Source of the DNA: Escherichia coli
Lineage (GTDB): Bacteria > Pseudomonadota > Gammaproteobacteria > Enterobacterales > Enterobacteriaceae
Length of the DNA stretch: 64,000 bases
Assembly: GCF_030013595.1 (NCBI RefSeq)
Contig: NZ_CP122768.1
Strand: one strand, 5' to 3'
Notes under the pieces: generated by a model
Told to the model about the DNA's origin: nothing
What the model saw: only the letters and a program-made list of their open reading frames with translations
The model's database searches: none
Program-made: the position numbers and the translations under genes
In this document: one piece after another, positions 7,105 through 26,887 of the stretch
Layout of the letters: each line of letters opens with the position of its first letter
Position numbering within the stretch: the stretch's first letter is position 1

Positions 7105-7471
7105 CCCGCAGACGGGAGAACAGCCCGGATACCAGCGATGCGATATCCTGCTGGTGGATGAATGAGAGAATCTTCACCGACACCACCGATACCAGTACCG
7201 CACAAAGCGCGTCGAGAGATGTGCTGTGGAGATTCAATTTTTCGACCAGCCAGGACGCAAGGACATCCGCCCCCAGCACGCCAACAATGAACGACACCAG
7301 AAAATGCGCCGCCACACGCCAGACAGAAATCACCTGTGGCATCGTGGCCACAAACAACGCCCCGGCAAACGCGCCAAACACAATCCCGAAATCCGTCCCG
7401 GTAAACAGCCCGAATACCGTCGCCCCGCCGAGCGCCACAGCAGTGCTGGAACCGGATAAGGGTTCAGACAT
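7082..7471 (-). CDS. Holin-like membrane protein
   Basis: Start MSEPLSG at 7471 with GGAGAA RBS; Gly/Ala-rich transmembrane segments; first gene of the lysis cassette. Confidence 0.5.
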   Translation of the reverse strand: MSEPLSGSSTAVALGGATVFGLFTGTDFGIVFGAFAGALFVATMPQVISVWRVAAHFLVSFIVGVLGADVLASWLVEKLNLHSTSLDALCAVLVSVVSVKILSFIHQQDIASLVSGLFSRLRGGGGNVK

Positions 7472-7670
7472 ATTTATTCTCCTGTAAATAAAAAGGACCA
7501 TCAGCGGCCCCGTAACTGACATTTTATTAACGTTTGAAGATATGGATATTTATCAGGGTTTACCGTTTTCTGAACCCTGGATATGTTAAGCATTCAGCCC
7601 GCCAGTGGTGGGACGCTGGCTCATCATAGAGAAAGAGGGATGGCTGATTACCTCTGATCAGGGAAATCAC

Positions 7671-7940
7671 ATGCAGTTTTTACATAAAAGAATGCATTTA
7701 AATGCAGGAGATACGGTAGTGGTTGACTGCTCTCATCAGTGCAATATTTTGCTGATGACAGATACAAACTTTAATAACTACCGCAACGCAAGAAGCTTTC
7801 ATCATCACGGTGGTGGCGGTTTTTTTCAGAGATTACCGGCCCACCTTCATGTACCGCATTCAGGTTACTGGAATATTACAATTGATTTAGGAGGCGGAAG
7901 TGCAGCTATTCGGCACTCCATTTCCGTCATCCCAGCATAG
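7671..7940 (+). CDS. Hypothetical phage protein, antisense to the late operon
   Basis: ATG at 7671 with AGGGA RBS (the listed ORF begins at a GTG at 7605); hairpin plus T-run downstream at about 8196-8235. Confidence 0.4.
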   Translation: MQFLHKRMHLNAGDTVVVDCSHQCNILLMTDTNFNNYRNARSFHHHGGGGFFQRLPAHLHVPHSGYWNITIDLGGGSAAIRHSISVIPA

Positions 7941-8298
7941 CAACTCGCCTTTAGCCTGAGTAAATGCGTCCTCAAGGACGGCAACGAGTCGCAGTTGCGT
8001 GCCGTCCTTTACACAGCGTGTGCAGGCAATACCTTCAGAACTTTCATTATGCCGAGCTCATACAATTTCACCATTTTGTTCAACTACAACGCTCATAATT
8101 TTCTTACACTTTTTTAATAAACCACACCAATAACAACCATCACCGATACCTTTTGTATGCTGTTATTTTGCATTACGGTGTAACGGCAAGAGCCCCCTCC
8201 CCGCCCTGAAAGGCTCTGTGTTTTTGATGTGCGCCTGATGTGGCTCAGATACAAAAAAGCTCGCAGTAGCGAGCTAACAGAAAATATGAAGCATGTTT

Positions 8299-8577
8299 TT
8301 ATCCACGAAGTATGACGTTGAATTCATCCATACCGACACGGCTGGCTATCTCGTTGTATTCCTCAACAAGAGCCAGCAATTCTGAATTAGCAGCCATGAA
8401 CTCTTCAAAAACCTTATGGATGGCATCACTGTTTAATAAAACAATGTTCTTTCCTGAAAGGCGATCAGGGGTAGAAAATATAACTGTCAAACGACTAAAG
8501 GCCCTGGCTCGTTCAGCATTAACATCCTCAATACGCTGCAACAAGCTGGAGCACCTGGAAATATCATCAATATTCAC
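8299..8577 (-). CDS. Hypothetical protein (cargo between Q and lysis genes)
   Basis: 92 aa ORF followed by a minus-strand hairpin terminator (gctcgcagtagcgagc with T-run) near 8254-8280. Confidence 0.4.
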   Translation of the reverse strand: MNIDDISRCSSLLQRIEDVNAERARAFSRLTVIFSTPDRLSGKNIVLLNSDAIHKVFEEFMAANSELLALVEEYNEIASRVGMDEFNVILRG

Positions 8578-9095
8578 TCTACTCCTGCCATCTGGATGAT
8601 AATCATTTCACGGAGAGAAGCACTCAGAAGTACCACTGAAGTATAGCTGGTGACCAGCTACTTACACATCTATTGCCATCCTGCTGATGATAAGTCGACA
8701 TTAGCCCTTCTGTCTATAAACGAAACAAAGGATAAGTTCAGGTTTTAAACACACTGCCAGGATAAAGTATTGTATACAGTATAGAAGAGCGTTATTGAAT
8801 GACATAAAAAACCAGACCTAATCCCTTATCCGGAAGATATATCAAATAAACGGGGAAAATGTATTAAGATGGCGTTCCTATTCTCTCCATCCCTGATGTC
8901 CACGTAACTCGTTATAGAATCAGAACGCCATCTGAATACACACAAAAAAGCTGACTTCACACCCTCCAGATGTGTGAACGCAGTGCCCGACCACGTGCTT
9001 TCGCAACCAGCACAAATCATTTTAAAGCATCGAAAAACGATCAGAATATATCAGAACTTCCTAGCATCCTGCTTGGCTTAGATATTAATCGAGGA

Positions 9096-10181
9096 TTAGC
9101 TCCTGTTCTTATCTAATTGTGCATTTCGCAATTTATCGTTCAGCACCAATATTTCACCAACTGTTTGTTCAAAACGCCCGGACTCAAGTTCAACCCCAAT
9201 CGTGCGACGCCCCAATCCCATTGCTGCTTTTATTGTTGCCCCCGATCCCATAAAAAAATCCGCAACCACATCCCCCGGACGACTGCTGGCAGAAATTATC
9301 TGACGCAACATATCCGCCGGTTTTTCGCAGGGATGCTTACCCGGATAATACTGCACGGGCTTATGCGTCCAGACGTCCGTATAAGGAACGGCGGCCGATA
9401 CAGAAAAATAACGCCGCAGAGATTTGTATTCCTCAAGCAGACTGGCATATTGCCGGTTCAGTTCACTGTATGTGCTGACCAGTTGCTGGTGTGGCGTTGC
9501 CAGCTCCCCACGCTGGTGCTTTTCTTCTGCAACACACGCGAACAGCGCCTGCAGTTTTCTGTAATCAGCTTCGTTCGGTAACTGCCACTGACAGGTACCA
9601 AACCAGTGCGACACCATGTTTTTCTTTCCGGTGGCTTCCGCTATCTGTTTGGACGTTATCCCCAGTGATTCACGCGCATCACGGAAGTAAGAAATCAGCG
9701 GGGCCATGACGTGTTGTTTAAGCTCGCGCTCCTTTGCCGCATAGCCATCATTTTTTGGCTGGTATGGCCCCTGATAATGTTCGGCAAACAGAATGCGCTC
9801 TGTTGCCGGGAAATACGCCCGCAGGCTTTCTTTGTTGCACCCGTTCCAGCGTCCGGATGGCTTCGCCCAGATAATGTGGTTCAGCACATTAAAGCGCTCA
9901 CGCATCATGATTTCGGTGTCAGATGCCAGGCGATGACCACAGAACAGGTAGAGACTTCCGGCAGGTTTCAGTACCCGCCAGAACTGAGCCAGACACTGAT
10001 CCAGCCATTTCAGGTAATCATCGTCGCCCTTCCACTGGTTATCCCAGCCCTCGGGCTTCACTTTAAAGTATGGCGGGTCTGTGACTATCAGATCGACAGA
10101 GTTTTCCGGTAAGGTCTGGATAAATTCCAGGCAATCAGCGTTGATTAACTCACAACTGGATATTTTTACAGTATCAACCAT
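9096..10181 (-). CDS. Orphan DNA N6-adenine (or N4-cytosine) methyltransferase, beta class
   Basis: LIVTDPPYF (motif IV) precedes DFFMGSGATIKAA (motif I); no adjacent restriction endonuclease gene. Confidence 0.75.
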   Translation of the reverse strand: MVDTVKISSCELINADCLEFIQTLPENSVDLIVTDPPYFKVKPEGWDNQWKGDDDYLKWLDQCLAQFWRVLKPAGSLYLFCGHRLASDTEIMMRERFNVLNHIIWAKPSGRWNGCNKESLRAYFPATERILFAEHYQGPYQPKNDGYAAKERELKQHVMAPLISYFRDARESLGITSKQIAEATGKKNMVSHWFGTCQWQLPNEADYRKLQALFACVAEEKHQRGELATPHQQLVSTYSELNRQYASLLEEYKSLRRYFSVSAAVPYTDVWTHKPVQYYPGKHPCEKPADMLRQIISASSRPGDVVADFFMGSGATIKAAMGLGRRTIGVELESGRFEQTVGEILVLNDKLRNAQLDKNRS

Positions 10182-10331
10182 AGATCAATAAGCACTTCTC
10201 TGATAGGCTCATACCGCTTTTGCGCAAAGCAGATGGGCCTGAGGTTTGCTTGTGACCCTAACGCATGAGCAGATGGCTGGCAGGTGCCGCTAACACCCAC
10301 CAGCCGCCCATTACCACAAATGAAAAAACCT

Positions 10332-10529
10332 TCACTGCGGAAGGCGTCTGTAACAACCGAACTGATAATCTGCCAGACCCGCCATAACAAGCTGGGTCAG
10401 TATTAACTGACAGCGTTCGCGTGAAAGGTAAGTATTCTGCGCAATTTCCCCAACTGTTGCCGGTTCAGTGACGCTTAATTCATTAAACACCACTCTGGCT
10501 GTTTCGGTCATATCCTGCTGTTTTAGCAT
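10332..10529 (-). CDS. Small hypothetical protein, possibly DNA-binding
   Basis: 65 aa ORF upstream of the methyltransferase. Confidence 0.3.
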   Translation of the reverse strand: MLKQQDMTETARVVFNELSVTEPATVGEIAQNTYLSRERCQLILTQLVMAGLADYQFGCYRRLPQ

Positions 10530-10702
10530 GTCTTTTTCTCTTTATTGGTTAACGTGACATACCAATAACTCTTGTCGAAAAAGCCAGCAAGCTGAAAGAC
10601 CGGTATTAATAACCACCTGCACATTTTATGTACCGAACCATTTTTCTGGCATAAAAAACCTCTCAATGGCGGGCGGTAAAAATCTTTGTTACTCAAGAAA
10701 TT

Positions 10703-11416
10703 TTAACGCACTCTGACTGTATTAATTTCAAAATCATTAATATTTCCGCTATTAAATATAACGAATTTCTTACCCCCACTCCTGTATGATTTCGATAACA
10801 CCAGACGATCATCATAACGCGCAATAATGTAATACCATACATTCTCATAGTGGATCGCCTGATATTCCCTCTTAAACTGTGGTTTGTACCAACCGGCAAT
10901 AAGAGAGAATGCCCAGAAATAAATCATAAACCCAGCCATCATGAACTCAATTCGGTGATGACGAATAAAAGACATTTCCGAAAAACATTTGACTGAAACA
11001 AGTCTTCTTCCAAACCTGACAAAAAGCGTGATTGTAAAGGCAGCAAGAATGCAGAAAATCAGTACATCTGGCTCAACATGCTGATGGATTACCGAAAACT
11101 CCAGAACAGGTGGAATAAAAAGCAGCAATATCGCGAGAAAAAGCCGGATAAAACTCAAATTTTGTATATTGCGCTTTTGTTTTATGCCCAAAAAGAAAAC
11201 AATACCAACTCCCCATCCAATAAGGAATATAACGATAACTGTCACAGCATAAAACAAACTTCGTGCTACATCATCGACACCAGCCCCGACAACCCACCAT
11301 GGAAAGCCATAGTAAAATGAAGTACCCCATCCATAGAAATAAGCGCTTCCCCATCCTAGACAGCCCATATAAGCAACAAAAAGTGAAGAGTTTCTGAGCA
11401 GAGCACTGTCATCCAT
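10703..11416 (-). CDS. Multi-pass membrane protein of unknown function (first gene after pR'/tR')
   Basis: 237 aa with about four hydrophobic helices and an approx 50 aa soluble C-terminus; lies in a visibly AT-rich segment. Confidence 0.5.
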   Translation of the reverse strand: MDDSALLRNSSLFVAYMGCLGWGSAYFYGWGTSFYYGFPWWVVGAGVDDVARSLFYAVTVIVIFLIGWGVGIVFFLGIKQKRNIQNLSFIRLFLAILLLFIPPVLEFSVIHQHVEPDVLIFCILAAFTITLFVRFGRRLVSVKCFSEMSFIRHHRIEFMMAGFMIYFWAFSLIAGWYKPQFKREYQAIHYENVWYYIIARYDDRLVLSKSYRSGGKKFVIFNSGNINDFEINTVRVR

Positions 11417-11554
11417 AGTAACACCATTAACAACTCAAAAATATCAACACATATTACATAACAAATTGGATTCCATGCAGTCAAGGGGCGTCATTGATGG
11501 AGAAAGTATTGGCACAATCATCATCACGTTTAATGTCTATGCCATTTTTTTGGG

Positions 11555-11583
11555 GATAAAAAAACCCGCTCGGTCACGGGTTT
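11555..11583 (-). terminator. tR'-like Rho-independent terminator
   Basis: aaacccgtgaccgagcggguuu hairpin followed by T-run on the minus strand, about 50 nt downstream of the putative pR'. Confidence 0.55.
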
Positions 11584-11637
11584 TACTAGCTTTGCCATCA
11601 CGTATAAAAACGGCAAAATATCAGATTCACACGAAAT

Positions 11638-11666
11638 ATATGCCTTTTTATCTACTTTTGCAATAC
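11638..11666 (-). promoter_or_regulatory. pR'-like late promoter immediately downstream of Q
   Basis: Minus-strand TTGCAA, 17 nt spacer, TATATT; positioned between Q stop (11671) and the terminator. Confidence 0.45.
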
Positions 11667-11670
11667 TTTG

Positions 11671-12342
11671 CTATGAAAATGCCGCCTTTTGTTTTGAACG
11701 TGTTCCCTCCACCAACAATAAAGCTTCACCATCCAGCCGATGAAAAATGTGTTTCATTGCAACCCAGTGACCAGTAAATGTCTTGGACCAGTTTTTGGTT
11801 GTTACTCCCACCAGTAACGCCAGTTCCTGGTATTCGTAACCTTCCCCACCAAAAAGCTCAGCTTTTACCGCCTGCGCCGCCAACCAGATCAACGTCTTCA
11901 GGCGCACCAGAGTTTTTCCTGCAATTTTTCTGGTACCGGATTGAGCATTAAATTCAGTCCACGCCCACTGCGTTATCGCGATCTGATGCTCCCAGCAAAT
12001 GCTACCGCTGTAACACCACAGCAGCCAGGCTTTATGATGTTCTTCAAGAGACAGAACGGCGCGTCGCCATGATGATGTCGAAAACTCAACCGGACTGACC
12101 AGGGCAATTGATGAACCTTTCACCAGCGATTGCTTTCCCGGGATCGGTGGATTATCCAGCGTTACTATTTTTCCAGTGACCTTATCGCGGTACCGGATTT
12201 TTTTACGTCTGTAACGCCCTGTATTGAACATGGCATTCTCCTGCCAGGCTTCAAGCTGACCTTTTGTTGCTCCACTCAAATCAGCGGTGGCGATCATGAG
12301 CTGCTCACGCACAAACTGTAAATACTGGTTATTCATGCGCAC
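11671..12342 (-). CDS. Probable late antiterminator (Q-like)
   Basis: 223 aa ORF directly upstream of a promoter/terminator pair and downstream of rusA, the canonical Q position; family assignment by context only. Confidence 0.45.
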   Translation of the reverse strand: MRMNNQYLQFVREQLMIATADLSGATKGQLEAWQENAMFNTGRYRRKKIRYRDKVTGKIVTLDNPPIPGKQSLVKGSSIALVSPVEFSTSSWRRAVLSLEEHHKAWLLWCYSGSICWEHQIAITQWAWTEFNAQSGTRKIAGKTLVRLKTLIWLAAQAVKAELFGGEGYEYQELALLVGVTTKNWSKTFTGHWVAMKHIFHRLDGEALLLVEGTRSKQKAAFS

Positions 12343-12692
12343 TCCAGTTCTGTGATTTTTATCCCCAGCCGACCACCGGGAACAACCTGACCGCGCATAA
12401 TATTAACTTCATCAAACTGCTCATCGTCGATAAGCAGTCCCGCATGTGTCAGCGCATCCAGTGGTGCCTTCAGGATATTGTCCAGGTCGCGGCGGCGCTT
12501 ATCCGGTGGCTCTGCAATAATTTTTATTGCCAGCCTTCCGGACAGGTTTAATTTCAGTCGCTGCTGGCGAACAATAAGCGCCACATCACGGCGATAACGC
12601 TCACCGGCTTTTGATACAAAATATGTGCTGCCACGACGTCGCCAGTAGGTGTTCACCGTTGGCGGGTAAGGCAAAACAAATTCTATCCCCAT
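12333..12692 (-). CDS. rusA: RusA-family Holliday junction resolvase
   Basis: 119 aa; PYPPTVNTYWRRRG...RRRDLDNILKAPLDALTHAGLLIDD matches RusA conserved motifs. Confidence 0.85.
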   Translation of the reverse strand: MGIEFVLPYPPTVNTYWRRRGSTYFVSKAGERYRRDVALIVRQQRLKLNLSGRLAIKIIAEPPDKRRRDLDNILKAPLDALTHAGLLIDDEQFDEVNIMRGQVVPGGRLGIKITELECA

Positions 12693-12704
12693 CAGTAACC
12701 TCTT

Positions 12705-13754
12705 TTATCCGAGTACGCCTGTTGCAAAGGCGTGATCAAGAAAACGAAAAATTAAATCAACCTGAGAACCATGTTTTTCTTCGAATGCCTGCGGATCCGC
12801 ATGAAGCTCGTTGTGATGCTCCCGACACAGCGGCAACGTAAAAATATCGTGGGCCTTTGTTCCCATCCCTCCCTGACCGTGACCAATCAGGTGATGGGGA
12901 TCGTCGGCTGGCTTACCACAACACGCACACGGCTGTGTCTTCACCCAGCGTGTGTATTTCTCATTTACCCAACGGCGACGTTTAGGTCGCTTCATGAAAG
13001 ATTCCGGAGACTCAGGATCAACGGCAATGCTGACCACCGTCTTTTCCTGTGGTGTGTTCTGTTGCTGGTGGACGTGAGGCAACGGCGCAAGATTTTTTGT
13101 GCGCTGCTTCAGTATGCTGGTGGCGGTCTGCTCTCCCGGTACGATGTCGCTTTCGCGGTAAACCGTGCGGATTTTTTCCGCACGTAATCCCAGAGAACGA
13201 CGTAATACTGCCTCCGGTAGCGCGTCCGCCACCTGATTGCAGACCGCCCACCAGGATAATTCAGCCAGCGATAATTCCCGTTCCTGTGCACCACTTATTG
13301 CGTGACGTATGACGTCAATCATCCAGGCTGTCAGATTTTGTTGAGCAAGCTGCCCGAGTGATTCGGATGTCTGGTCGCGCAGCTGGTTGTCGCAGTGCCA
13401 GCACAACAACATTGCGCCGGTACCGTAACGATGTATGACGGTTTCACTGTGGTGATAGTCTCCATGAGGCCACTGGCAGGATTTAACATGACGCAGGAGC
13501 CAGTCAGACAGTGCGCCAGCGCCGCCAGCAGCACGAATCACACGCTCATCGCTGAAAAACGGCAGCAATGTTTTATCTTCCGCCAGCGGCTGGCGAACGG
13601 CAGGAACGACTCCGGACGGCATACCGCGCATGTTTTTCGGTTCCGGCTCCACCAGCACCCTGCCGTTATGGAATACCTGCATGGATTCACGCCCCGGCTT
13701 AAGGACCACCAGCCCGAGTTCCGGTACCGGAACAGGTCGAAGTAATACCCGCAC
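12705..13754 (-). CDS. DUF968-like lambdoid nin-region protein with C-terminal Cys/His cluster
   Basis: 349 aa; C-terminus CACCGKPADDPHHL...CREHHNELH; family assignment from memory of YdfU-like prophage proteins. Confidence 0.5.
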   Translation of the reverse strand: MRVLLRPVPVPELGLVVLKPGRESMQVFHNGRVLVEPEPKNMRGMPSGVVPAVRQPLAEDKTLLPFFSDERVIRAAGGAGALSDWLLRHVKSCQWPHGDYHHSETVIHRYGTGAMLLCWHCDNQLRDQTSESLGQLAQQNLTAWMIDVIRHAISGAQERELSLAELSWWAVCNQVADALPEAVLRRSLGLRAEKIRTVYRESDIVPGEQTATSILKQRTKNLAPLPHVHQQQNTPQEKTVVSIAVDPESPESFMKRPKRRRWVNEKYTRWVKTQPCACCGKPADDPHHLIGHGQGGMGTKAHDIFTLPLCREHHNELHADPQAFEEKHGSQVDLIFRFLDHAFATGVLG

Positions 13755-13755
13755 G

Positions 13756-14028
13756 TTACCTCCAGATGCGTTGCTGGAATGTGCGGGACGGACGCGGCGG
13801 GCGTTCGGAATAAGGGAGCCTGACGTAGATTATCCAGTGATGGTAGTCGAGGCTAAGGGCTTTCTTAAACTCATACCCACGTCTGCGGTAGTTATGAATC
13901 AGCCATTCGGCCTGTTCTTCAGTGCAGGGATCGTGCTGATACCAGTCATATTTGAATGTGTGAGAACACCGCCCTTGCCTGCTGGCAGGGGCGGTATCAG
14001 AATTGTGATGTTTGGTATTGTGCGCCAT
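13756..14028 (-). CDS. Hypothetical nin-region protein
   Basis: ORF; likely start MAHNTKHH. Confidence 0.35.
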   Translation of the reverse strand: MAHNTKHHNSDTAPASRQGRCSHTFKYDWYQHDPCTEEQAEWLIHNYRRRGYEFKKALSLDYHHWIIYVRLPYSERPPRPSRTFQQRIWR

Positions 14029-14163
14029 CGGTTTTCTCTGCTGGCGCAGCAGGTGCCAGTTGTTCAAGCTGGCGTGCGGCAATATTGTCTCTGATTTCTG
14101 TTGTCGTCAACAGGCAACGTGCTATCATCGAATGGTGTTCTATCCTACTCCGTGAGGTTTACC

Positions 14164-14421
14164 ATGCGTACAACCCAACAATTCAGCATTACATTAACTA
14201 ACGAAATGGCTGACATGGTGCGCGCCCGTGTGGCTTCCGGTGCCTATGCTTCAGAAAGCGAGGTCATTCGTGAAGGGCTTCGCGCACTGAATGAGCGCGA
14301 TAAAGCAATCGAAGCGTGGTTAACGCATTCAGCCGCCCCCTCTCTTGATTCTATCCGCGAAACCCCAAACAACGGACGCTCCATTTCACAGGTTCGCGCC
14401 GCGATTCGATCCGGGAAGTAA
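14164..14421 (+). CDS. parD: ParD-family antitoxin (ribbon-helix-helix)
   Basis: 85 aa; MRTTQQFSITLTNEMADMVRARVASGAYASESEVIREGLRAL typical ParD; immediately upstream of a ParE-like gene. Confidence 0.8.
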   Translation: MRTTQQFSITLTNEMADMVRARVASGAYASESEVIREGLRALNERDKAIEAWLTHSAAPSLDSIRETPNNGRSISQVRAAIRSGK

Positions 14422-14426
14422 TCTGC

Positions 14427-14726
14427 ATGACATATGAAGTCATCATTACTCCTGAGGCCGAACAACAAATAATCAACCTGCACAGGTATATAACGGAGAA
14501 AGCAGGGAACGTCATTGCTGACAATTATGCCAATGCGCTTCTTGATTATCTTGATGGGTTTTCTACATTCCCGCATCGGGGCAATAAACGCGATGATATT
14601 CGCCAGGGGATGCGGGTAACTCATTTCCGCCACAGAACGATTATTGCTTTTGCCGTTGATAGCAGAAAAGTCTTTATTGTCGGTATCTATCATGGTGGGC
14701 AAAGTTATGAAACCGATTTCTTATAA
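14427..14726 (+). CDS. parE: ParE/RelE-family toxin
   Basis: 99 aa; starts 6 nt after parD stop; a hairpin terminator follows. Confidence 0.75.
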   Translation: MTYEVIITPEAEQQIINLHRYITEKAGNVIADNYANALLDYLDGFSTFPHRGNKRDDIRQGMRVTHFRHRTIIAFAVDSRKVFIVGIYHGGQSYETDFL

Positions 14727-14807
14727 ACTTTTACCCACATCATTCCGGTGTTAGAATTAACCGTCCGCCCCCTCTCTTACTGGCGGATTCGTAGGCTATA
14801 TAAATCA

Positions 14808-14845
14808 AAGATCCCGGCTCATGTTTGTGTCGGGATCTTTTTTCG
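14808..14845 (+). terminator. Rho-independent terminator after parDE
   Basis: gatcccgg..ccgggatc hairpin followed by TTTTTT. Confidence 0.6.
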
Positions 14846-14850
14846 GCGAT

Positions 14851-14934
14851 TTATCCCCAGCGGCAAATCGAATACACCACCAGCGCCACCGCCATCGCAA
14901 TTCCTACCGTTGTGAATGCTTCAGGCCAGGTCAT
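14851..14934 (-). CDS. Possible 27-aa hydrophobic peptide translationally coupled to the upstream gene
   Basis: ATG overlaps stop of the 114-aa gene (ATGA); peptide [27 protein letters not shown]. Below the ORF-track length cutoff, so speculative. Confidence 0.25.
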
Positions 14935-15275
14935 CGTAAAATATCCTCCACGCTTATCAGTCCGTTCCGCTCCAGATAACTCATCGCCTTATCCGGTAAT
15001 TTGCAGTCTGGCTTCGCTTTCCTCAGTTGCCAGGTTAACTGCTTTACCAGCATGGTTAACTCATCGACCAGACGCTGATATCCCACTGGTTTGTATTCAT
15101 GCAATTTACCGGCTGGCTCTGCTGCCAGCGATACCAGTGCGATTTCCAGAACAGCAATATCCATCTTATATGTGCGGATGATGTCATGGTCGATTGTGCC
15201 CGGTATGCACAGTCTCTGTGCTTCAATAGTCTCCTCTGCGTGAGCTATTAACTGCTCTCTGGTAAAAGTCGTCAT
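14931..15275 (-). CDS. Hypothetical phage protein
   Basis: 114 aa ORF overlapping the HNH gene stop by 4 nt. Confidence 0.4.
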
Positions 15276-15637
15276 GCCGTAGCCCCTTCTTGATATTTTT
15301 CAAACCAGAACACAACTGGGTCAGATTTCATTTCAACCAATCCCATACGAACCAGCGCTTTGCCTTTCCCGGACGCAAGGAATTCACGACGACCATCACT
15401 GATAATTCGCCGATAATCTTCCAGACTACTGCAATGCTTGTGCAGATTGCATGGGTGGCATGCCGGAACCATGTTGGATATATCGTCACGTTCCTGGTGA
15501 AGCATATTTCCATCAAAACGAATGACCGGTTTTACATGGTCTGCATGCCACTTTTCGCCAAGTTCGCAGCCGCAATAAGCACAGCGACCGCCGAACTTCA
15601 TGCGCAGCTCTGCACGTTGTTTTTTCGTCAGTGCCAT
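15272..15637 (-). CDS. HNH endonuclease
   Basis: Start MALTKKQ with AGGAAA RBS; CAYCGC...HADHVKP...N...[11 protein letters not shown] Cys/His-Asn-His motifs. Confidence 0.7.
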
Positions 15638-15638
15638 A

Positions 15639-15857
15639 TCAGCTTTCCTTATACGGATTAATTTTATTGTGCAGTGTGTTGAACGACGCCCACACCACGT
15701 CGTTATACAATTCAATAACTGGCTCAATTATTTTCACGATAAACCAGACCAGTAATAGCGGGGATATCGGTATCATCAACACGATAAATATAATGAGAAA
15801 CAAAAATTCTGTCGCTCTACTTTTTCTCGGATATTCTTTTCTGAATAATGTAGTCAT
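15639..15857 (-). CDS. Small membrane protein
   Basis: 72 aa with one long hydrophobic segment. Confidence 0.35.
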   Translation of the reverse strand: MTTLFRKEYPRKSRATEFLFLIIFIVLMIPISPLLLVWFIVKIIEPVIELYNDVVWASFNTLHNKINPYKES

Positions 15858-15889
15858 TTCTTACCGCCCTTTCGGGCGGCCTCCTGACA

Positions 15890-16102
15890 TTAATCATTGT
15901 GATAACTCATAGTTTCATTTGCAGCATCAACTGGATCAACATCCCACCAGCAATAATTTTGGTCGAGTCCTTCAGGTGTCCACGGCTCTAATTCATTTTT
16001 TACCGCATTCTCGTCACCAGTAATTTTAAAAATCTGCTCAGAAAATTTCCTCACCCACTCGTTATATTTTTCCGCATTAATGGTTTTCTGTGTATTTAAC
16101 AT
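15890..16102 (-). CDS. Hypothetical phage protein
   Basis: 70 aa ORF. Confidence 0.3.
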   Translation of the reverse strand: MLNTQKTINAEKYNEWVRKFSEQIFKITGDENAVKNELEPWTPEGLDQNYCWWDVDPVDAANETMSYHND

Positions 16103-16152
16103 AGATATGCCTCCAGTTAAGGATTTGATTTTATTTACAGTGCTAAATTTAA

Positions 16153-16509
16153 TTATTCAGTTCTGGATTTTGTCGCCCTGCGTATCCGCGCTTTCGCGTT
16201 ACGCTCAATCTGAATTAACTTTTCTATATTTTTCCGTCTTTCCTGTTCCTCCTGGCGCAATAGCCTTACATCATCTGCCAGTCTGGTTTCTCTTTTCGCC
16301 ACAGAGAGCATCCAGTCAAACGGCTCCACAACTGCACCGCAGATTTTACAGCGGACCTGACGCTCTTTTTCGTCAACCCGAACAGAGGCGTGATGACAAT
16401 ATGCTCTTTCCGATGGCTCATAAAGAAAATTAACCTGATTACGTGGGTCATCCTCTTTTACCGGAAATAAAACGATATTGCTTAACTCATCTTCTGGTTT
16501 TATTTCCAT
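16153..16509 (-). CDS. Hypothetical phage protein with Cys pair (possible zinc ribbon)
   Basis: Start MEIKPE with GGAGAAG RBS; CKICG motif. Confidence 0.4.
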   Translation of the reverse strand: MEIKPEDELSNIVLFPVKEDDPRNQVNFLYEPSERAYCHHASVRVDEKERQVRCKICGAVVEPFDWMLSVAKRETRLADDVRLLRQEEQERRKNIEKLIQIERNAKARIRRATKSRTE

Positions 16510-16566
16510 GCTCTTCTCCTTTGATGTGAATGCCAGCGGTAATTGAAGCCTGATAGCTAATTTCAT

Positions 16567-16989
16567 TCACAGTATCGCCTCCTGAAATTTACCCTGATAG
16601 AAAGCCAGTACACGCTGCATAGCTGCGCTCTTCCGGCACTCGCTACAGATTATGTTCTGACGCCTGTCGTAGCGGCGTATTTCTCCGTCTGGTAATGACC
16701 AGATAAGGTCCGGATCAACCACAGATGTTTTCTTCAGATTTGCCCTTGAGAGTTTTTTGCGGGCATTTTGCCAGTCCTTACGCGCCTGCGCTGACGGGAA
16801 TAACCCGTAACCAGAGTTGTATACATCGCCGCTGGCAACCAGCTCTCTTGCGAGAACGCTCATCAGATATCTTGTTGCCCCAGTTTTAGCTTCCAGTTGT
16901 CGTAACGTCTCTCGCCCGCTCTGGCGTACGAGATCAACAATCTGCCCTTTAATTTTTTCCCGCTCTTCCTGTGTAAATACTTTTGCCAT
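16567..16989 (-). CDS. Hypothetical phage protein
   Basis: Start MAKVFTQ with GGAGGG RBS. Confidence 0.4.
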   Translation of the reverse strand: MAKVFTQEEREKIKGQIVDLVRQSGRETLRQLEAKTGATRYLMSVLARELVASGDVYNSGYGLFPSAQARKDWQNARKKLSRANLKKTSVVDPDLIWSLPDGEIRRYDRRQNIICSECRKSAAMQRVLAFYQGKFQEAIL

Positions 16990-17005
16990 AAGCCCTCCCC
17001 TGGAA

Positions 17006-17731
17006 TCACTTTTCCGACACAATACGACTGGAGGAATCAACAATCTGTCGGACAATATCCCGGTGCTTGTTCAGCTCCCGCAGCGCGGCGCAGACTCGCT
17101 CCCACTTCTGGACATGACTTTTCGCCCGGCGCAGTTCGCGGTTTGCCATATGCAGCGATGGTAAAATCAGGCCATTCGCTCGCGTTTCAGTGAACGATGG
17201 CAGTGACTGCACAAGGTCCGCCACAGTTTCTGTTTTAATTTCCTCCTGTGTTGCCGCTTCCTGTACTGGTAACGCAACACCGGCTGGCTGAGGAAAGGCT
17301 TTACCAGATGTTTTCGCTACCGATACAACTTTCGGCTCTGCTGGTAAATTACCGTCCGGCAGGCAGTAACGAAATTTACCGTTCTGATTTACGCGAATCA
17401 GACGACCTTTGCTGATGGCCATAGCCAGCGATGAGTTCACCCTGCGGGAAGTAATTCTGAATATCAGTGCAAGTTCATCAGCCGCTTTAGGGCCATGCTG
17501 TTCAATCGCCTCGATCAGCATTTGCGCTGTCACTTTAGAAGCCTGTGCCACAGATGCGTTTTCGTCGGTTTGAGTCAACCACCACATCGGGCCCTTGTTA
17601 TCAGCTTCCCCGCGACGCTTCAGTTTCCACAGCTCGTTAATCGCCTCATCCCGGGTCATTCCCAGACGTGCTGCCACTTCCTGGGAAGAGGCTTTTCCCA
17701 TTGCTTTCAGTGCGTCAAAAACGGTCTCCAT
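17006..17731 (-). CDS. Hypothetical phage protein (nin/replication region)
   Basis: Start METVFD with GGGAGG RBS; 241 aa. Confidence 0.4.
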   Translation of the reverse strand: METVFDALKAMGKASSQEVAARLGMTRDEAINELWKLKRRGEADNKGPMWWLTQTDENASVAQASKVTAQMLIEAIEQHGPKAADELALIFRITSRRVNSSLAMAISKGRLIRVNQNGKFRYCLPDGNLPAEPKVVSVAKTSGKAFPQPAGVALPVQEAATQEEIKTETVADLVQSLPSFTETRANGLILPSLHMANRELRRAKSHVQKWERVCAALRELNKHRDIVRQIVDSSSRIVSEK

Positions 17732-17765
17732 TAAAATTTCCTCCCGGTAAAAATTACTTCTCAAC

Positions 17766-18431
17766 TCAAACAAAACCAGCCGCTTTCCGGCGTTCATATT
17801 CCTGTTTCAGCAACTCAATTGGCGTTGGTCCCGACGGGTGTTTGGGTGCCGCCAGTTGTCGCCGGACTGGCGGAATGCTCAGGCCATTACCAACATGCTT
17901 TGCCCATTTCGTCAGTTGCCATTCTGCAAGCCGTTTTAACTCCCCTTCGGTCATCTGGCGCTCAATCCCCTTTGAACGCATCTCGAGGCAAATGTGATAC
18001 AGCACAGGCTGAGACCACGGGTACTTATCACTTCCGTCGTATCGCCAGGACTCATTGCGCCAGCGGCGGTACTCCTCCATCACAGCATCCACCGTCAGAC
18101 CAAATGGATTGGCTCCGCTTTCCGAAATCAGCGCCACAAACTCAGCCAGGTCCGGAGGCCATGTTTCACCCGCCCGGCAGCGGTCCATGCACTGGCGGCA
18201 GACCTGCCGGATTTGCTGCTCAGTCATCGCGCCAATCTGTGCAATCCAGAGCTTCGAAGGTGCGGCCCCGTTCTTCTGGGTCCAGCGGTTCGAATAAACC
18301 TCCCCCATGAGTTCCCACAGCTTCCAGGCCGTTTCCGTCGCTGATAAATCCGTTTTCACGTTCCCACTGCTCACGTGCTGCCCGAATTTCCTGAACTGCT
18401 CGTGATGCGGTGCCACCTGGTGCTGCTGCAT
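17766..18431 (-). CDS. Replication protein P-like (helicase loader)
   Basis: C-terminal region resembles lambda P (YPWSQPVLYHICLEMR.. vs YPWKSNAHYWLVTNLY..); strong RBS AAGGGGG before ATG at 18431; start overlaps the O-like frame by about 210 nt, so start or O end is uncertain. Confidence 0.55.
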   Translation of the reverse strand: MQQHQVAPHHEQFRKFGQHVSSGNVKTDLSATETAWKLWELMGEVYSNRWTQKNGAAPSKLWIAQIGAMTEQQIRQVCRQCMDRCRAGETWPPDLAEFVALISESGANPFGLTVDAVMEEYRRWRNESWRYDGSDKYPWSQPVLYHICLEMRSKGIERQMTEGELKRLAEWQLTKWAKHVGNGLSIPPVRRQLAAPKHPSGPTPIELLKQEYERRKAAGFV

Positions 18432-19245
18432 GGTTTACCCCCTTGCTGACTGGTTTAACCTGCGCCCTGACGTGATTTACGTGACGGGCGAATTTCTGCT
18501 CCCACTGAATCTGCGTGAACACTTTCCCCTCCGCTGCCCAGTAGTCCCGGAAGGCTGCAAATTCAGCTGGTGTAAATTCCGGCTCAGGCAGAGCCACTCC
18601 CCACAGAGCAGCCCGTCGTCGAAAATCCGGCGACGGATGCCAGCCATCGGTCATCGGAAATTTCCCGATGGGTTCGCTCATGCCGTCCAGATATTCGGGC
18701 TCCGGTGTCTGCGATGGCGTACCGTTCGACTCACTGGTCGTAGCTCTCTCGCGCACGCGCGCGTTATGTGTGGGGTTTAATTCTTTATCTGTATCTTTAT
18801 CTGTCGTGACTCGTCGTGACATGTCGTGACATATGCGTGACTCGTCGTGACACCCCTCATTCTGTTTTCGTAATTTTTCCCTCTCGCGCTGCGCTCTCTT
18901 GCGCTCTGCCGGGGATTTCGCGGTTTGTGAAACGTTGCCATTGTCCTCTTTCAGTACCTGGCGTTTTTCCCATCCAGTGATTAAATCACCATCAAGTACC
19001 CGCCCCTGCATCGTCTGCAAAATTGAATCAATTACCTCTTCTGTCACGTCGAGCGCACTTGCCAAATCTTCTGTCGTGACATCAATGTGACCTCGCGTGA
19101 CATTTCGTGACGCGCTCACCAGGAGGTGGATATACACTGCCATCACTGTTGCAATTGGCTGCCCTGACACCCTGGCAATTGTTCGCCACTTAGGGTCATT
19201 TGGCATGTCATGCCATAATCTGAGCCAAGCGTTAGCCATACTCAC
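18220..19245 (-). CDS. Replication initiator O-like protein containing the origin iterons
   Basis: 341 aa ORF directly upstream of P-like gene; two clusters of GTCGTGAC-type direct repeats inside the coding sequence, as with ori in lambda O. Confidence 0.55.
   Translation of the reverse strand: MSMANAWLRLWHDMPNDPKWRTIARVSGQPIATVMAVYIHLLVSASRNVTRGHIDVTTEDLASALDVTEEVIDSILQTMQGRVLDGDLITGWEKRQVLKEDNGNVSQTAKSPAERKRAQREREKLRKQNEGCHDESRICHDMSRRVTTDKDTDKELNPTHNARVRERATTSESNGTPSQTPEPEYLDGMSEPIGKFPMTDGWHPSPDFRRRAALWGVALPEPEFTPAEFAAFRDYWAAEGKVFTQIQWEQKFARHVNHVRAQVKPVSKGVNHAAAPGGTASRAVQEIRAAREQWERENGFISDGNGLEAVGTHGGGLFEPLDPEERGRTFEALDCTDWRDD
18801..18852. repeat. Iteron cluster 1 (putative replication origin)
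   Basis: Five tandem approx 10-bp units ending in CGTGAC, preceded by an AT-rich tract. Confidence 0.6.
19070..19113. repeat. Iteron cluster 2
   Basis: Four further GTGAC-containing repeats. Confidence 0.45.
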
Positions 19246-19310
19246 CTCTTCTGATACCGAATCTTTTTACTCACGAGTTGCCGGAAGTGATTCGATATGG
19301 CTATTGTCAG

Positions 19311-19736
19311 TCAATGTACTGCCACAGCATTTCCTGCCGGGCCACCACGGTTCATCTGATTGAAACCGGCGATTGCCACTGCGACAAAATCATCAGCGTC
19401 TCTCACCAGTCGCTCCCGCGTCTCCACCAGCTCCCGAAAATAAGCTGAACTGTGGCTGCGCATTCTGGCCACCAGCAAAGGTGGCATTGCCTTTTCGATC
19501 GCTGGTAACAACGTCTGAATTTTTTCAACTGCATCAGGGGTGTCTTTCTCTACCCAGCGGAAAATTTTCTGGGTATTGCGAGCCAGGGCTTCCGGATGGC
19601 TATCGTCATACAGTTCAGGAAACGTCATACCCAACTCAAAATAAGCCTGGGTTATTCCAGCTGCTGGAACTTTTTCGCCATCAGGACGCGCCCAGGCATT
19701 CATCGCCATGCGGATGTGTTCATGCTTGATTTTCAT
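19311..19736 (-). CDS. YdaT-like protein (CII-position gene downstream of cro)
   Basis: 141 aa ORF in the position and size of Rac ydaT. Confidence 0.4.
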   Translation of the reverse strand: MKIKHEHIRMAMNAWARPDGEKVPAAGITQAYFELGMTFPELYDDSHPEALARNTQKIFRWVEKDTPDAVEKIQTLLPAIEKAMPPLLVARMRSHSSAYFRELVETRERLVRDADDFVAVAIAGFNQMNRGGPAGNAVAVH

Positions 19737-19758
19737 GAATCATTTGCCTCTTGATGTT

Positions 19759-20055
19759 TCAGGTATGATCAAATGAGGATTTGTTACTGTCATTTAGTTG
19801 CTTCACTGACATATTCTGCGAACAACATGCCGAACGTCGTAAATATGACCAGTCAATATCAGGACGAAGTTCTTCGCACAGAACCTCACCTCTTGTTGCA
19901 CGTTCAATTGCTGGACATCTCTCGGCAGGCAATTGACGTACCCCTTTGATCCATTGATTTACGCTTGGAGGTGATACACCTAAAAGCCTAGCCATTGCTG
20001 ATTGCCCACCGACAACAGCACAAGCTTGCTTGAATGAATAGTTCTCTTTTTTCAT
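19759..20055 (-). CDS. Cro-like HTH regulator (YdaS-like)
   Basis: 98 aa; divergent from repressor gene across an operator-rich gap; GGAG RBS. Confidence 0.6.
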   Translation of the reverse strand: MKKENYSFKQACAVVGGQSAMARLLGVSPPSVNQWIKGVRQLPAERCPAIERATRGEVLCEELRPDIDWSYLRRSACCSQNMSVKQLNDSNKSSFDHT

Positions 20056-20084
20056 CGAATGAACTCCAAAAACACACAGAAATA

Positions 20085-20150
20085 TTAGGCGACGCCTAAC
20101 ACAAATGTCAATAGGCTGTGCCTAATGCGATAAAGGTAGGAATTGCCTAA
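20085..20150. promoter_or_regulatory. OR-like operator cluster with divergent promoters
   Basis: Three sites matching TTAGGC-N3-GCCTAA (20085-20099 perfect palindrome; 20111-20125; 20137-20150); minus-strand TTGACA/TAATAT promoter candidate overlaps them. Confidence 0.55.
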
Positions 20151-20178
20151 TACAATGAGCATAGGAGAATATTAAGCA

Positions 20179-20655
20179 ATGCTTAGTGGTAAAGACTTAG
20201 GCCGAGCGATAGAGCAGGCCATTAACAAAAAAATCGCATCGGGATCCGTCAAATCAAAGGCGGAGGTCGCACGCCACTTCAAAGTCCAACCACCATCAAT
20301 TTATGACTGGATTAAGAAAGGCTCTATAAGTAAAGATAAACTTCCAGAATTATGGCGTTTCTTTTCTGATGTTGTTGGTCCAGAGCATTGGGGGCTTAAC
20401 GAATACCCCATACCAACCCCCACCAATTCAGATACAAAAAGTGAACTTTTAGATATAAACAACCTTTATCAAGCAGCCTCTGATGAAATAAGAGCGATTG
20501 TAGCTTTCCTGTTATCTGGAAATGCTACAGAACCAGATTGGGTTGACCACGATGTTCGCGCCTACATAGCAGCGATGGAAATGAAAGTGGGTAAGTATCT
20601 GAAAGCTCTAGAATCTGAACGGAAAAGCCAGAACATCACAAAAACTGGAACTTAA
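20179..20655 (+). CDS. Prophage repressor (CI-like, no peptidase domain; RacR-like size)
   Basis: 158 aa with N-terminal HTH-like region; flanked on both sides by the same operator motif. Confidence 0.55.
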   Translation: MLSGKDLGRAIEQAINKKIASGSVKSKAEVARHFKVQPPSIYDWIKKGSISKDKLPELWRFFSDVVGPEHWGLNEYPIPTPTNSDTKSELLDINNLYQAASDEIRAIVAFLLSGNATEPDWVDHDVRAYIAAMEMKVGKYLKALESERKSQNITKTGT

Positions 20656-20750
20656 ACTTATATGGTCTGACGGAAAACTCCTGGATTCCGTTATTTAACC
20701 CCCCATCACTTTCTGCTGTCGCCATCACCTATTAGGTTACGATCAAAACA

Positions 20751-20793
20751 TTAGGCATAGCCTATTGACAATCAATTAGGCATTACCTATAGT
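20751..20793 (+). promoter_or_regulatory. OL/PL-like: two operator sites overlapping a near-consensus sigma70 promoter
   Basis: TTAGGCATAGCCTAT and TTAGGCATTACCTAT; TTGACA (20765-20770), 17 nt spacer, TATAGT (20788-20793). Confidence 0.6.
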
Positions 20794-20892
20794 TCCAGCA
20801 TACCACCCACCCCGCCCCACAGAACGCAGGGCAATACTTCGAGTTACCAGGCAGTGGTCAGGGGTTAAGTAGCCAGCCCGAGGCGTAAGAAC

Positions 20893-21126
20893 ATGACGGC
20901 AGGGTTCAACTTTAACTATGCAGCAGGTTTTTGTTCCGCCACCCCGGCGTTAAGGGGAAATGAGGTCAGCATGGATACTATCGATCTTGGCAACAGCGAA
21001 TCTCTGGTATGTGGCGTGTTCCCCAACCAGGACGGCACGTTCACTGCGATGACGTATACCAAAAGCAAAACGTTTAAAACCGAATCTGGCGCGCGTCGCT
21101 GGCTGGAAAGAAACTCAGGTGAGTGA
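20893..21126 (+). CDS. Hypothetical early-left protein (start uncertain)
   Basis: ORF; alternative ATG at 20971. Confidence 0.3.
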   Translation: MTAGFNFNYAAGFCSATPALRGNEVSMDTIDLGNSESLVCGVFPNQDGTFTAMTYTKSKTFKTESGARRWLERNSGE

Positions 21127-21127
21127 T

Positions 21128-21259
21128 ATGGATTTCGACACAATCATGGAAAAGGCTTACGAAGAATACTTCGAAGGCCTTGCCGAAGGCGAAGAAGCTC
21201 TCAGCTTCAGTGAGTTTAAACAGGCGCTTTCCAGCTCGGCAAAATCTAACGGCTGATAA
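21128..21259 (+). CDS. Small acidic hypothetical protein, 43 aa
   Basis: ATG with AGGTGAG RBS; below ORF-track cutoff. Confidence 0.3.
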
Positions 21260-25647: not shown

Positions 25648-25899
25648 ATGTACGAATTAACTCTATCGCCAGCAGAGATTCAAGAGATCACGAAATACGA
25701 GCGATACACAAAACAGCAACACCAGTTAAGGCTGCACGGTATCCCATTTGTAATCGGTCCTAAAAACGAACCAATAGTTCTTCGCAGGGATATTCCACAC
25801 GGACTGACTACGATGCCAAAAGCACCTGAACTGGTTTCCGCTGAACCCGATTTTGAGGCGCTGAACAATGGGAAGACCAAGAAAAAACAAAAAAGATAA
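25648..25899 (+). CDS. Probable excisionase / small recombination directionality protein
   Basis: 83 aa ORF overlapping the integrase start by 32 nt; assignment by position. Confidence 0.4.
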   Translation: MYELTLSPAEIQEITKYERYTKQQHQLRLHGIPFVIGPKNEPIVLRRDIPHGLTTMPKAPELVSAEPDFEALNNGKTKKKQKR

Positions 25900-26887
25900 T
25901 GCACTACCACCGCGTGTTAGATCGAATGGTTACAGTTACGTATGGAAACCCGAAGGAAGCACAAGAACTATAGGGCTCGGAAGAGTGCGGGAAACCAGCG
26001 TAGCTAAAGTCTGGCAAAATTATGAGCTGGAAAAAGCAAAACTCCACAACATAATGACAGTAGCTAAATTATGGCACATGTTTATGGACTCCCCTGCATT
26101 TACAGAACTGGCCCCCCGAACCCAAAAAGATTATCGGCAACATCAAAGGGCATTGTTGGCAGTATTCGGAAAAGTGCTTGCTGATAATGTAAAAATTGAA
26201 CAGGTAAGAATTTTCATGGATAAGCGAGGACTTGAGAGCAAGACCCAAGCAAACCATGAACTGGCAAGTCTGAGCCGTGTATACGGATGGGGATATGAGC
26301 GTGGGTATGTGAAAAATAATCCATGCAAAGGAGTCAGAAAATTCACACTTAAAGCCCGTACTGTTTACATCACCGATGAACAGTATGCTGCAATATATGC
26401 GGAAGCAATTCCACAGTTACGTATTGCAATGGAGATATCCTATCTTTGTGCGGCAAGGCTCGGTGATGTACTCGAGCTGAAATGGCAGGATATTATGGAG
26501 AAAGGGATTTACATTGAGCAAAACAAGACCGGCACTAAACAAATCAAGGAATGGTCTCCGCGATTACGTACGGCGATCCAGTTAGCCCGAAATGTATCTT
26601 CCGGCACATGCGAGTATGTGATCAACACAACCAAAGGCGGGAAGGTAATAGCCAAGACGCTGAACAACTGGTGGAATCAGGCTAAACGTGCAGCCGAGCA
26701 AAAAGCCGGCGTTCCGTTTGGGTGCAACTTCCATGACATAAAAGCCAAAGGGATTTCAGATTACGAAGGCAGCAGTCGCGACAAACAAATTTTCAGTGGA
26801 CACAAAACAGAAAATCAGGTGTTGATTTACGATCGTAAAACCAAAATAACACCAACACTGGATTTGCCGCTTGTGGTCAGTAAGTAG
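25868..26887 (+). CDS. Tyrosine-type site-specific integrase
   Basis: 339 aa; catalytic-region motifs (LCAARLGD, HDIKAKG, LIYDRK); adjacent to tRNA-derived att. Confidence 0.85.
   Translation: MGRPRKNKKDNALPPRVRSNGYSYVWKPEGSTRTIGLGRVRETSVAKVWQNYELEKAKLHNIMTVAKLWHMFMDSPAFTELAPRTQKDYRQHQRALLAVFGKVLADNVKIEQVRIFMDKRGLESKTQANHELASLSRVYGWGYERGYVKNNPCKGVRKFTLKARTVYITDEQYAAIYAEAIPQLRIAMEISYLCAARLGDVLELKWQDIMEKGIYIEQNKTGTKQIKEWSPRLRTAIQLARNVSSGTCEYVINTTKGGKVIAKTLNNWWNQAKRAAEQKAGVPFGCNFHDIKAKGISDYEGSSRDKQIFSGHKTENQVLIYDRKTKITPTLDLPLVVSK

Follow-up and report, generated by a model that had tools for sequence, protein, structure and literature searches.

Why should a toxin-antitoxin (TA) pair stand alone on the plus strand within the early genes of a lambdoid prophage of Escherichia coli, and what could it do there? 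This question is raised by a stretch of 64,000 nucleotides of contig NZ_CP122768.1 (assembly GCF_030013595.1), hereafter called the window, in which two short open reading frames (ORFs), parD and parE, follow each other between positions 14164 and 14846. The initial annotation had read them as a parDE module that may stabilize the prophage or act in phage defence. From the analysis described below we conclude with good confidence that the locus is a canonical two-gene type II ParD-ParE operon, which forms an autonomous cassette of 770 bp (a 'moron') in a lambdoid prophage integrated beside yccA. Its genes are the following.

14164-14421, plus strand: parD, ribbon-helix-helix (RHH) antitoxin of 85 amino acids (aa)
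14154-14157, plus strand: Shine-Dalgarno sequence GAGG, 6 nt ahead of the parD ATG, read from the sequence
14427-14726, plus strand: parE, toxin of 99 aa belonging to the ParE clade

The pair is of a known kind, as RefSeq, PHROGs and the record of ArgO145 already name it. ArgO145, a Shiga toxin (Stx) phage, carries the pair and its record labels a TA pair. A literature search by terms (ParE/ParD/prophage/lambdoid; orphan antitoxin/Stx) and by RefSeq accession did not find an experimental study of this pair; the apparent matches included author names and the ParE of topoisomerase IV.

Families of the antitoxin and the toxin

ParD was recognized by the family models PF03693 (E=1.6e-7; 32.1 bits, curated cut-off 21), TIGR02606 'ParD family antitoxin' (53.8 bits, cut-off 46.2) and phrog_6494 'antitoxin' (E=1.8e-55), and it bears the name 'ParD family antitoxin' in RefSeq (WP_040072796.1). 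Its nearest solved relatives are the ParD antitoxins 3kxe_C, 7ycv, 7b22, 6x0a and 8c24. Residues 6-51 align with the RHH region of four of these (3kxe_C, 7ycv, 7b22 and 8c24), and weak matches to the RHH of NikR were obtained as well. The parD stop codon is followed, on the same strand, by the parE ATG after 5 nt (tctgc), a spacing that corrects the 6 nt given initially. In the four E. coli loci examined the ParD gene lies directly upstream of the toxin gene, and the ParD and ParE homologues in Salmonella, Erwinia and Enterobacter agree in the length of their longest contig, which suggests that the two may be located on one contig. When ParD, a linker and ParE were modelled as one fused chain (predicted template modelling score, pTM, 0.79), residues 41-80 of ParD were predicted at a local confidence (pLDDT) of 92-97. 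This is consistent with a C-terminal half of ParD that is folded onto the toxin, the fusion being an indirect check of binding.

The ArgO145 record begins the antitoxin at Met15 (L001 4382-4588; 68 aa), a start with which the RHH beta-strand would be lost. The 85-aa start that RefSeq gives in bacterial genomes suits the family models, whose matches begin at residues 6-8.

ParE matches PF05016 over model positions 1-89 of 89 (E=4.5e-10; 40.4 bits, cut-off 23) and phrog_5232 'toxin' (E=2.4e-43), and is called 'RelE/ParE family toxin' in RefSeq (WP_000220601.1). Because PF05016 and the name given by the NCBI annotation pipeline (PGAP) cover RelE and ParE alike, profile and fold comparisons were done to tell the two apart. 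The toxin family comprised 1145 relatives at E<=1e-3 among 1.84 billion representatives, and an 85-sequence alignment was built. According to the initial annotation a lack of conserved toxin residues would speak against the pair; such residues are loosely defined for ParE, and all seven near-invariant columns of the alignment are kept in this protein. Searched against the PDB, the 85-sequence profile matched ParE toxins exclusively at E<=1e-5. In the whole search 6x0a_A (7.7e-12) ranked first, and 8c24, 7ycs, 3kxe, 5ceg, 6xrw, 5cw7 and 7r5a followed in that order.

The fold comparison gave the same grouping. The AlphaFold2 model of ParE (pLDDT 91.2, pTM 0.82) has two long helices at the N-terminus (9-26 and 28-46) and a three-stranded sheet, and the best 23 PDB structures found with it by Foldseek all belong to the ParE clade, at template modelling (TM) scores of 0.72-0.87. 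The protein is full-length: residues 5-96 align with 17-106 of 6x0a_A, reaching the end of the latter. The C-terminal 10 residues or so, which are required for toxicity in the ParEs that have been studied (PMC10886550), are present.

These comparisons bear on the alternative of a RelE-type toxin that cleaves mRNA in a ribosome-dependent manner. The family model and the PGAP name would allow it, as neither discriminates, and one RelE/StbE chain, 7etr, appeared in the profile search at E=1.6e-4. It was, however, the sole one, and eight ParE structures scored above any RelE. In the Foldseek search RelE, YoeB, HigB and YafQ ranked below all ParE structures (TM 0.43-0.66, E >= 4e-3); the model contains the long helical hairpin that separates ParE from RelE (PMC10886550); and the toxin is paired with an RHH antitoxin of the ParD type, which exceeds the TIGR02606 cut-off. 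As fold and profile both place RelE-type toxins beneath ParE, a RelE-type RNase was rejected and is considered very unlikely. By profile and predicted fold, the toxin groups with ParE toxins and not with RelE RNases.

Purifying selection acts on both genes, neither of which is disrupted. Compared with alleles from other E. coli genomes, dN/dS was 0.06-0.18 for parD and 0.08-0.10 for parE, at dS values of up to 0.45. Among 5426 complete E. coli genomes the toxin gene was found full-length in 327 (6.0%) and the antitoxin gene in 364; all copies were chromosomal and none was on a plasmid. Wherever annotation was viewed (25 rows of toxin matches and four loci including that of strain EC556) the toxin was annotated as an intact coding sequence (CDS) of the RelE/ParE family. 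It could be argued that the pair no longer functions and that prophage DNA carries it along while it decays. Many chromosomal TA loci are attenuated, and in EC556 the prophage around the pair is degraded. Against this, neither ORF was shortened in any sampled genome, dN/dS was about 0.1 across alleles with dS of up to 0.45, the toxin matched over its whole length in all 327 genomes, and promoter, palindrome and terminator have been kept in differing genomic contexts. Decay of the pair is therefore hardly to be believed. The ParD/ParE-type pair of the initial annotation is upheld by the family models, the PDB profile, the fold model, purifying selection and the cassette boundaries described in the following section.

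The cassette and its slot in the prophage

A sibling prophage that bears hokD and lacks parDE (strain 300709, locus L004) is homologous to the window up to 14078 and again from 14850 onwards. For phage ArgO145 and the Stx2a phages, in which the module is found in a different left context, near int, homology sets in at 14081. From these two boundary comparisons the unit is 14079-14849, which agrees with the earlier view of the pair as inserted. The cassette and its control elements are listed below.

14079-14849, no strand assigned: mobile parDE cassette of 770 bp (promoter-like site, candidate operator, parD, parE, 3' hairpin and terminator)
14101-14128, plus strand: sigma-70-like promoter with TTGTCG (14101-14106), a 16-nt spacer and the extended -10 element TG-n-TATCAT (14120-14128), 9/12 consensus matches
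14098-14113, no strand assigned: perfect palindrome CTGTTG-tcgt-CAACAG (6+4+6, 100% complementary, 16 bp) that covers the -35 hexamer
14763-14788, plus strand: 3' untranslated hairpin GUCCGCC ... GGCGGAU, present in minimum free energy and centroid folds, within the cassette
14807-14843, no strand assigned: intrinsic terminator with stem AAAGATCCCG / CGGGATCTTT and then T6, just inside the right cassette boundary

The palindrome core TGTTGTCGTCAACA is unchanged in ArgO145 and in the loci of Stx2a phages that contain an orphan ParD (see below). From the way in which RHH antitoxins act, the palindrome is a candidate ParD operator. The terminator, which had been claimed for the pair from the outset, was recovered by folding. 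Its stem is 10 bp long and contains G+C (14807-14816 / 14831-14840), the loop measures about 14 nt and the T6 occupies 14838-14843. Folding of the 3' region beat all 200 shuffles (z = -3.2). A consensus terminator scan over 13700-15400 found none, and this simple scan missed the hairpin because of its long loop. On the minus-strand transcript the same hairpin is followed by UUUGAUUU, owing to the A-run left of the stem, so that the terminator may act in both directions.

Further promoter-like sites and a doubtful gene were noticed in and around the cassette. Within the palindrome, -35-like hexamers stand back to back, and a leftward promoter-like site, TTGACG-18-AATATT (14081-14110, minus strand), which does not go beyond chance, faces the DUF968, RusA and Q genes; the candidate operator could in principle govern both directions. 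Directly behind the parE stop lies TTTACC-16-TG-TAGAAT (14730-14757), with two hairpins after it, the second of which is the terminator. The region 14730-14846 could in principle yield a transcript of about 80 nt. Scanned against Rfam at E<=1, the interval 13600-15400 gave a chance match to a plant microRNA at 13920-13981 as its sole result, and no known small RNA was seen downstream of parE within the cassette. RefSeq places a hypothetical protein of 43 aa, WP_001342258.1, at 13997-14128 on the minus strand. It starts within the cassette, where it overlaps the parDE promoter, and runs across the boundary; in Stx2a phages this start leads to a different product of 79 aa. It is unlikely to be a real gene.

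Nine loci from prophages sharing the left flank were surveyed at this position, a small but consistent sample. The slot lies between the block of small ORF, DUF968, RusA and Q genes and the replication-side genes (loci L004, L005, L006 and L010-L013). Its cargo was as follows.

Strain 300709: hokD
Strain XDL: hokD
O157:H7 DEC4E: hokD
SCPM-O-B-9427: hokD
K-12 Qin: rem-hokD-relE-relB
Strain 10: plus-strand toxin of the RelE/ParE family and a helix-turn-helix (HTH) gene (higBA-like pair), beside hokD
OkiPb01697: parDE together with a further ORF and hok/gef
The window: parDE alone

By these sequence comparisons the slot is a general toxin-antitoxin exchange site of this prophage family, at which TA cassettes are collected and swapped.

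The toxin of strain 10 (L013 3531-3903) is annotated as two overlapping CDSs of 123 and 258 nt, which suggests that it is frameshifted or split, next to an intact HTH partner. A second mosaic joint was seen in prophages that have DUF551 to the right of parDE (H103, H140). They match the window to about 14934, and the 85 bp past the cassette (14850-14934) can thus be exchanged separately.

The element that contains the slot, judged from its genes and from related prophages, is a lambdoid prophage of E. coli integrated beside yccA. Its relevant genes are the following.

11671-12342, minus strand: antiterminator Q, which shares its side of parDE with RusA, DUF968 and one small hypothetical gene
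On the other side of parDE, all minus strand: a hypothetical gene of 114 aa, HNH endonuclease, DUF4014, DUF977 and DUF1627
Beyond DUF1627, all minus strand: P-like, O-like, YdaT-like and Cro-like genes
20179-20655, plus strand: repressor-like gene
25868-26887: integrase, adjoining yccA, taken from the annotation of near-identical prophages

In the gene calls all early-operon neighbours are on the minus strand and the parDE pair alone is on the plus strand, as the initial annotation had it for the lambdoid genes around the pair. The orientation of parDE opposes the early operon that runs from Cro to Q.

Strain EC556 (L009) matches the window at 99.9% identity, limited to 7125-18693. Its copy of the prophage is heavily degraded: most late genes are lost, tail genes are fragmentary, the O-like gene is truncated and the immunity region (18694-21254 of the window) is deleted. 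The parDE pair in it is identical and intact despite the decay around it. The idea that the window is identical to EC556 was rejected, as the match is restricted to the interval given and EC556 is without the immunity region and late genes of the window.

Proposed action and role of the pair

Repression of the prophage need not silence the cassette, since the latter has its own promoter-like site, palindrome and terminator and is oriented against the early operon. By analogy with the ParDE family (PMC10886550), the operon would be autoregulated by ParD dimers on the palindrome that covers the -35 hexamer, ParE serving as co-repressor. ParE would be wrapped and neutralized by the C-terminal half of its partner. 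ParD would also decay faster than the toxin, so that ParE would go free once the cassette is lost or silenced. It would then most likely trap DNA gyrase in a cleavage complex, as members of the family poison gyrase (PMC10886550), and cause SOS induction and filamentation.

Several points weigh against this reading of the locus. A scan of the toxin against NCBIfam was without a matching model, and a single-sequence phmmer search of it against the PDB returned one weak match (E=0.011), so that the family profile was required. Its identity to any characterized ParE is 12-24%, and the last 9 residues, the region needed for toxicity elsewhere, were modelled at a pLDDT of 62. Across the region three sigma-70-like sites were found and 2.2 are expected by chance; as this count is not beyond chance, the scan by itself is no proof of the promoter, and it is position and conservation that carry the support. 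The structural neighbours PrpT and PfiT have other reported effects. Toxicity, neutralization, target, operator binding and promoter activity are inferences. Finally, ParE2 of an E. coli O157:H7 prophage reportedly does not inhibit gyrase (PMC10886550), and for this reason we regard the gyrase-trapping step as somewhat more probable than its opposite and go no further.

A protein with the ParE fold could have a target other than gyrase, as has been reported for O157 ParE2, which did not inhibit gyrase, and for PrpT, with its part in plasmid replication control. The low identity to proven gyrase poisons (<25%), the presence of PrpT (7ycs) and PfiT (9w3a) among the nearest structures and the behaviour of the prophage-borne ParE2 all point that way. 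Most characterized ParEs with an RHH partner (RK2, Vibrio ParE2, M. tuberculosis, P. aeruginosa and Caulobacter) nevertheless poison gyrase or induce SOS (PMC10886550), and the top profile matches are ParD-ParE pairs of this gyrase-poisoning/SOS type. A different target is accordingly possible but doubtful, and trapping of gyrase is kept as the proposed action.

A role in prophage stabilization or phage defence, as first suggested, is reasonable by analogy. The likeliest effect would be addiction, that is, selfish retention of the prophage segment, for which ParE(SO)-CopA(SO) provides a precedent (PMC8706911). Exclusion of other phages is a possible secondary effect.

It might also be proposed that defence is the main role of the pair, in the form of abortive infection or superinfection exclusion that is triggered as ParD decays after an incoming phage has halted host transcription. 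Abortion of phage infection is known for several TA systems; the slot gathers several TA types (hokD, relBE, higBA-like) and so resembles a prophage defence hot spot; and the orientation and the promoter of the cassette permit expression in the lysogen. No ParDE pair, however, is known to defend against phage, and neither protein was matched by PADLOC-DB v2 at E <= 0.1, which leaves phage exclusion unsupported by that database. The orphan ParD of Stx2a phages could be a counter-measure, an idea that has been raised for the orphan antitoxins of Stx phages, although no classic antitoxin has been verified as an anti-defence factor (PMC12502783). Defence as the main role is therefore rather unlikely, while defence and addiction may hold together.

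The orphan ParD itself was met in the distribution of the antitoxin gene. Matches at 80-90% identity were found in 45 phage records, mostly of Stx2a-converting phages, and among the phage matches listed 21 out of 21 reach no further than nt 341 of the query. Likewise, 37 of the 5426 E. coli genomes have only a parD variant that is about 86% identical. Two orphan loci were compared with the cassette.

L003 3066-3350: orphan ParD of 85 aa, its sequence about 85% identical to that of ParD in the window
L008 4001-4300: orphan ParD of the same length and identity

Both loci have the promoter and palindrome of the window cassette and the same 5-nt spacer, after which a parE stub of 7 codons, MAYEVPH* (MTYEV... 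in the window), is left. Past the stub the DNA is unrelated and contains a lipoprotein-like ORF and an orphan HigA-like antitoxin. In the DNA-binding N-terminal half of the orphan the protein is identical (dN = 0 at dS = 0.30), and the toxin-binding C-terminal half is still under purifying selection (dN/dS = 0.31). Orphan ParD and HigA antitoxins were noted, without explanation, in two Stx phages in 2025 (PMC12502783). If these belong to the same family, the window cassette supplies the ancestral cognate toxin and points to a possible source of the orphan ParD.

The shared promoter and palindrome, the identical DNA-binding half, the selected toxin-binding half and the parE stub also make a conflict between lambdoid prophages, co-resident or competing, conceivable, in which addiction by ParE is countered by Stx2a phages that keep the antitoxin alone as an 'anti-addiction' or anti-defence factor. 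Such an orphan ParD could neutralize ParE and cross-repress the resident parDE promoter. This scenario is put forward as an improbable one. A related and weaker idea starts from the antisense placement of the cassette in the early operon: by transcriptional interference, induction of the prophage could bring about release of the toxin.

Whichever role it has, the pair by itself is of little consequence and its value lies in the context. It marks a recombination slot in lambdoid prophages of the Qin/Rac type, where different TA families replace each other or stack. If the pair stabilizes prophage DNA or excludes phages, it would help such segments to persist in porcine enterotoxigenic and Shiga toxin-producing E. 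coli (ETEC/STEC) and in other E. coli lineages.

Comparison with known systems

The closest counterparts are RHH-ParD/ParE pairs: the solved systems of Caulobacter (ParD1-ParE1; 3KXE), Mesorhizobium (ParDE; 5CEG, 6X0A), M. tuberculosis (ParDE1; 8C24), Vibrio cholerae (ParD2-ParE2; 7R5A) and P. aeruginosa (ParDE; 6XRW), and the prototype parDE of RK2. The cassette resembles them in the order of antitoxin and then toxin, in the RHH N-terminus and the predicted toxin-binding C-terminal half of the antitoxin, in the ParE fold with its long helical hairpin, in the protein sizes (85 and 99 aa) and in the promoter palindrome. It differs in that the toxin is only 12-24% identical to theirs, in its location in a lambdoid prophage and not in a plasmid or superintegron, and in being known here from sequence.

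PaaR2-PaaA2-ParE2 of the cryptic prophage CP-933P of E. coli O157:H7 (5CW7, 5CZF; PMC8630535) likewise has a ParE-fold toxin in a lambdoid prophage, with a TM score of about 0.8. That system consists of three components, among them a short antitoxin without DNA-binding domain and a separate regulator, PaaR2 (PMC8630535). In contrast, the cassette has two genes and its antitoxin bears an RHH domain of its own. The profile match to ParE2 (1.3e-5) is weaker than that to the classical ParEs. A three-component architecture of the PaaR type was rejected, given the two genes in 14079-14849 and the RHH in the antitoxin itself.

By analogy, the best precedents for a role in prophage maintenance or modulation would be ParE(SO)-CopA(SO) of the Shewanella prophage CP4So, which has a role in maintenance of that prophage (PMC8706911), and PfiT-PfiA of Pseudomonas Pf4 (PMC7264888, PMC13048266; 9W3A). 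In both, a toxin of the ParE superfamily and an adjacent antitoxin are located inside a prophage, and PfiT is a structural neighbour of the ParE described here. The phage types (a P4-like element and a filamentous phage, respectively), the antitoxin families and the hosts are different.

With respect to position, the counterparts are relBE-hokD of K-12 Qin and hokD of related prophages, which are found at the same place on the prophage map. Their toxins, the RelE RNase and the Hok membrane peptide, belong to families unrelated to ParE, and their genes share the strand of the phage operon, whereas parDE is encoded on the opposite one.

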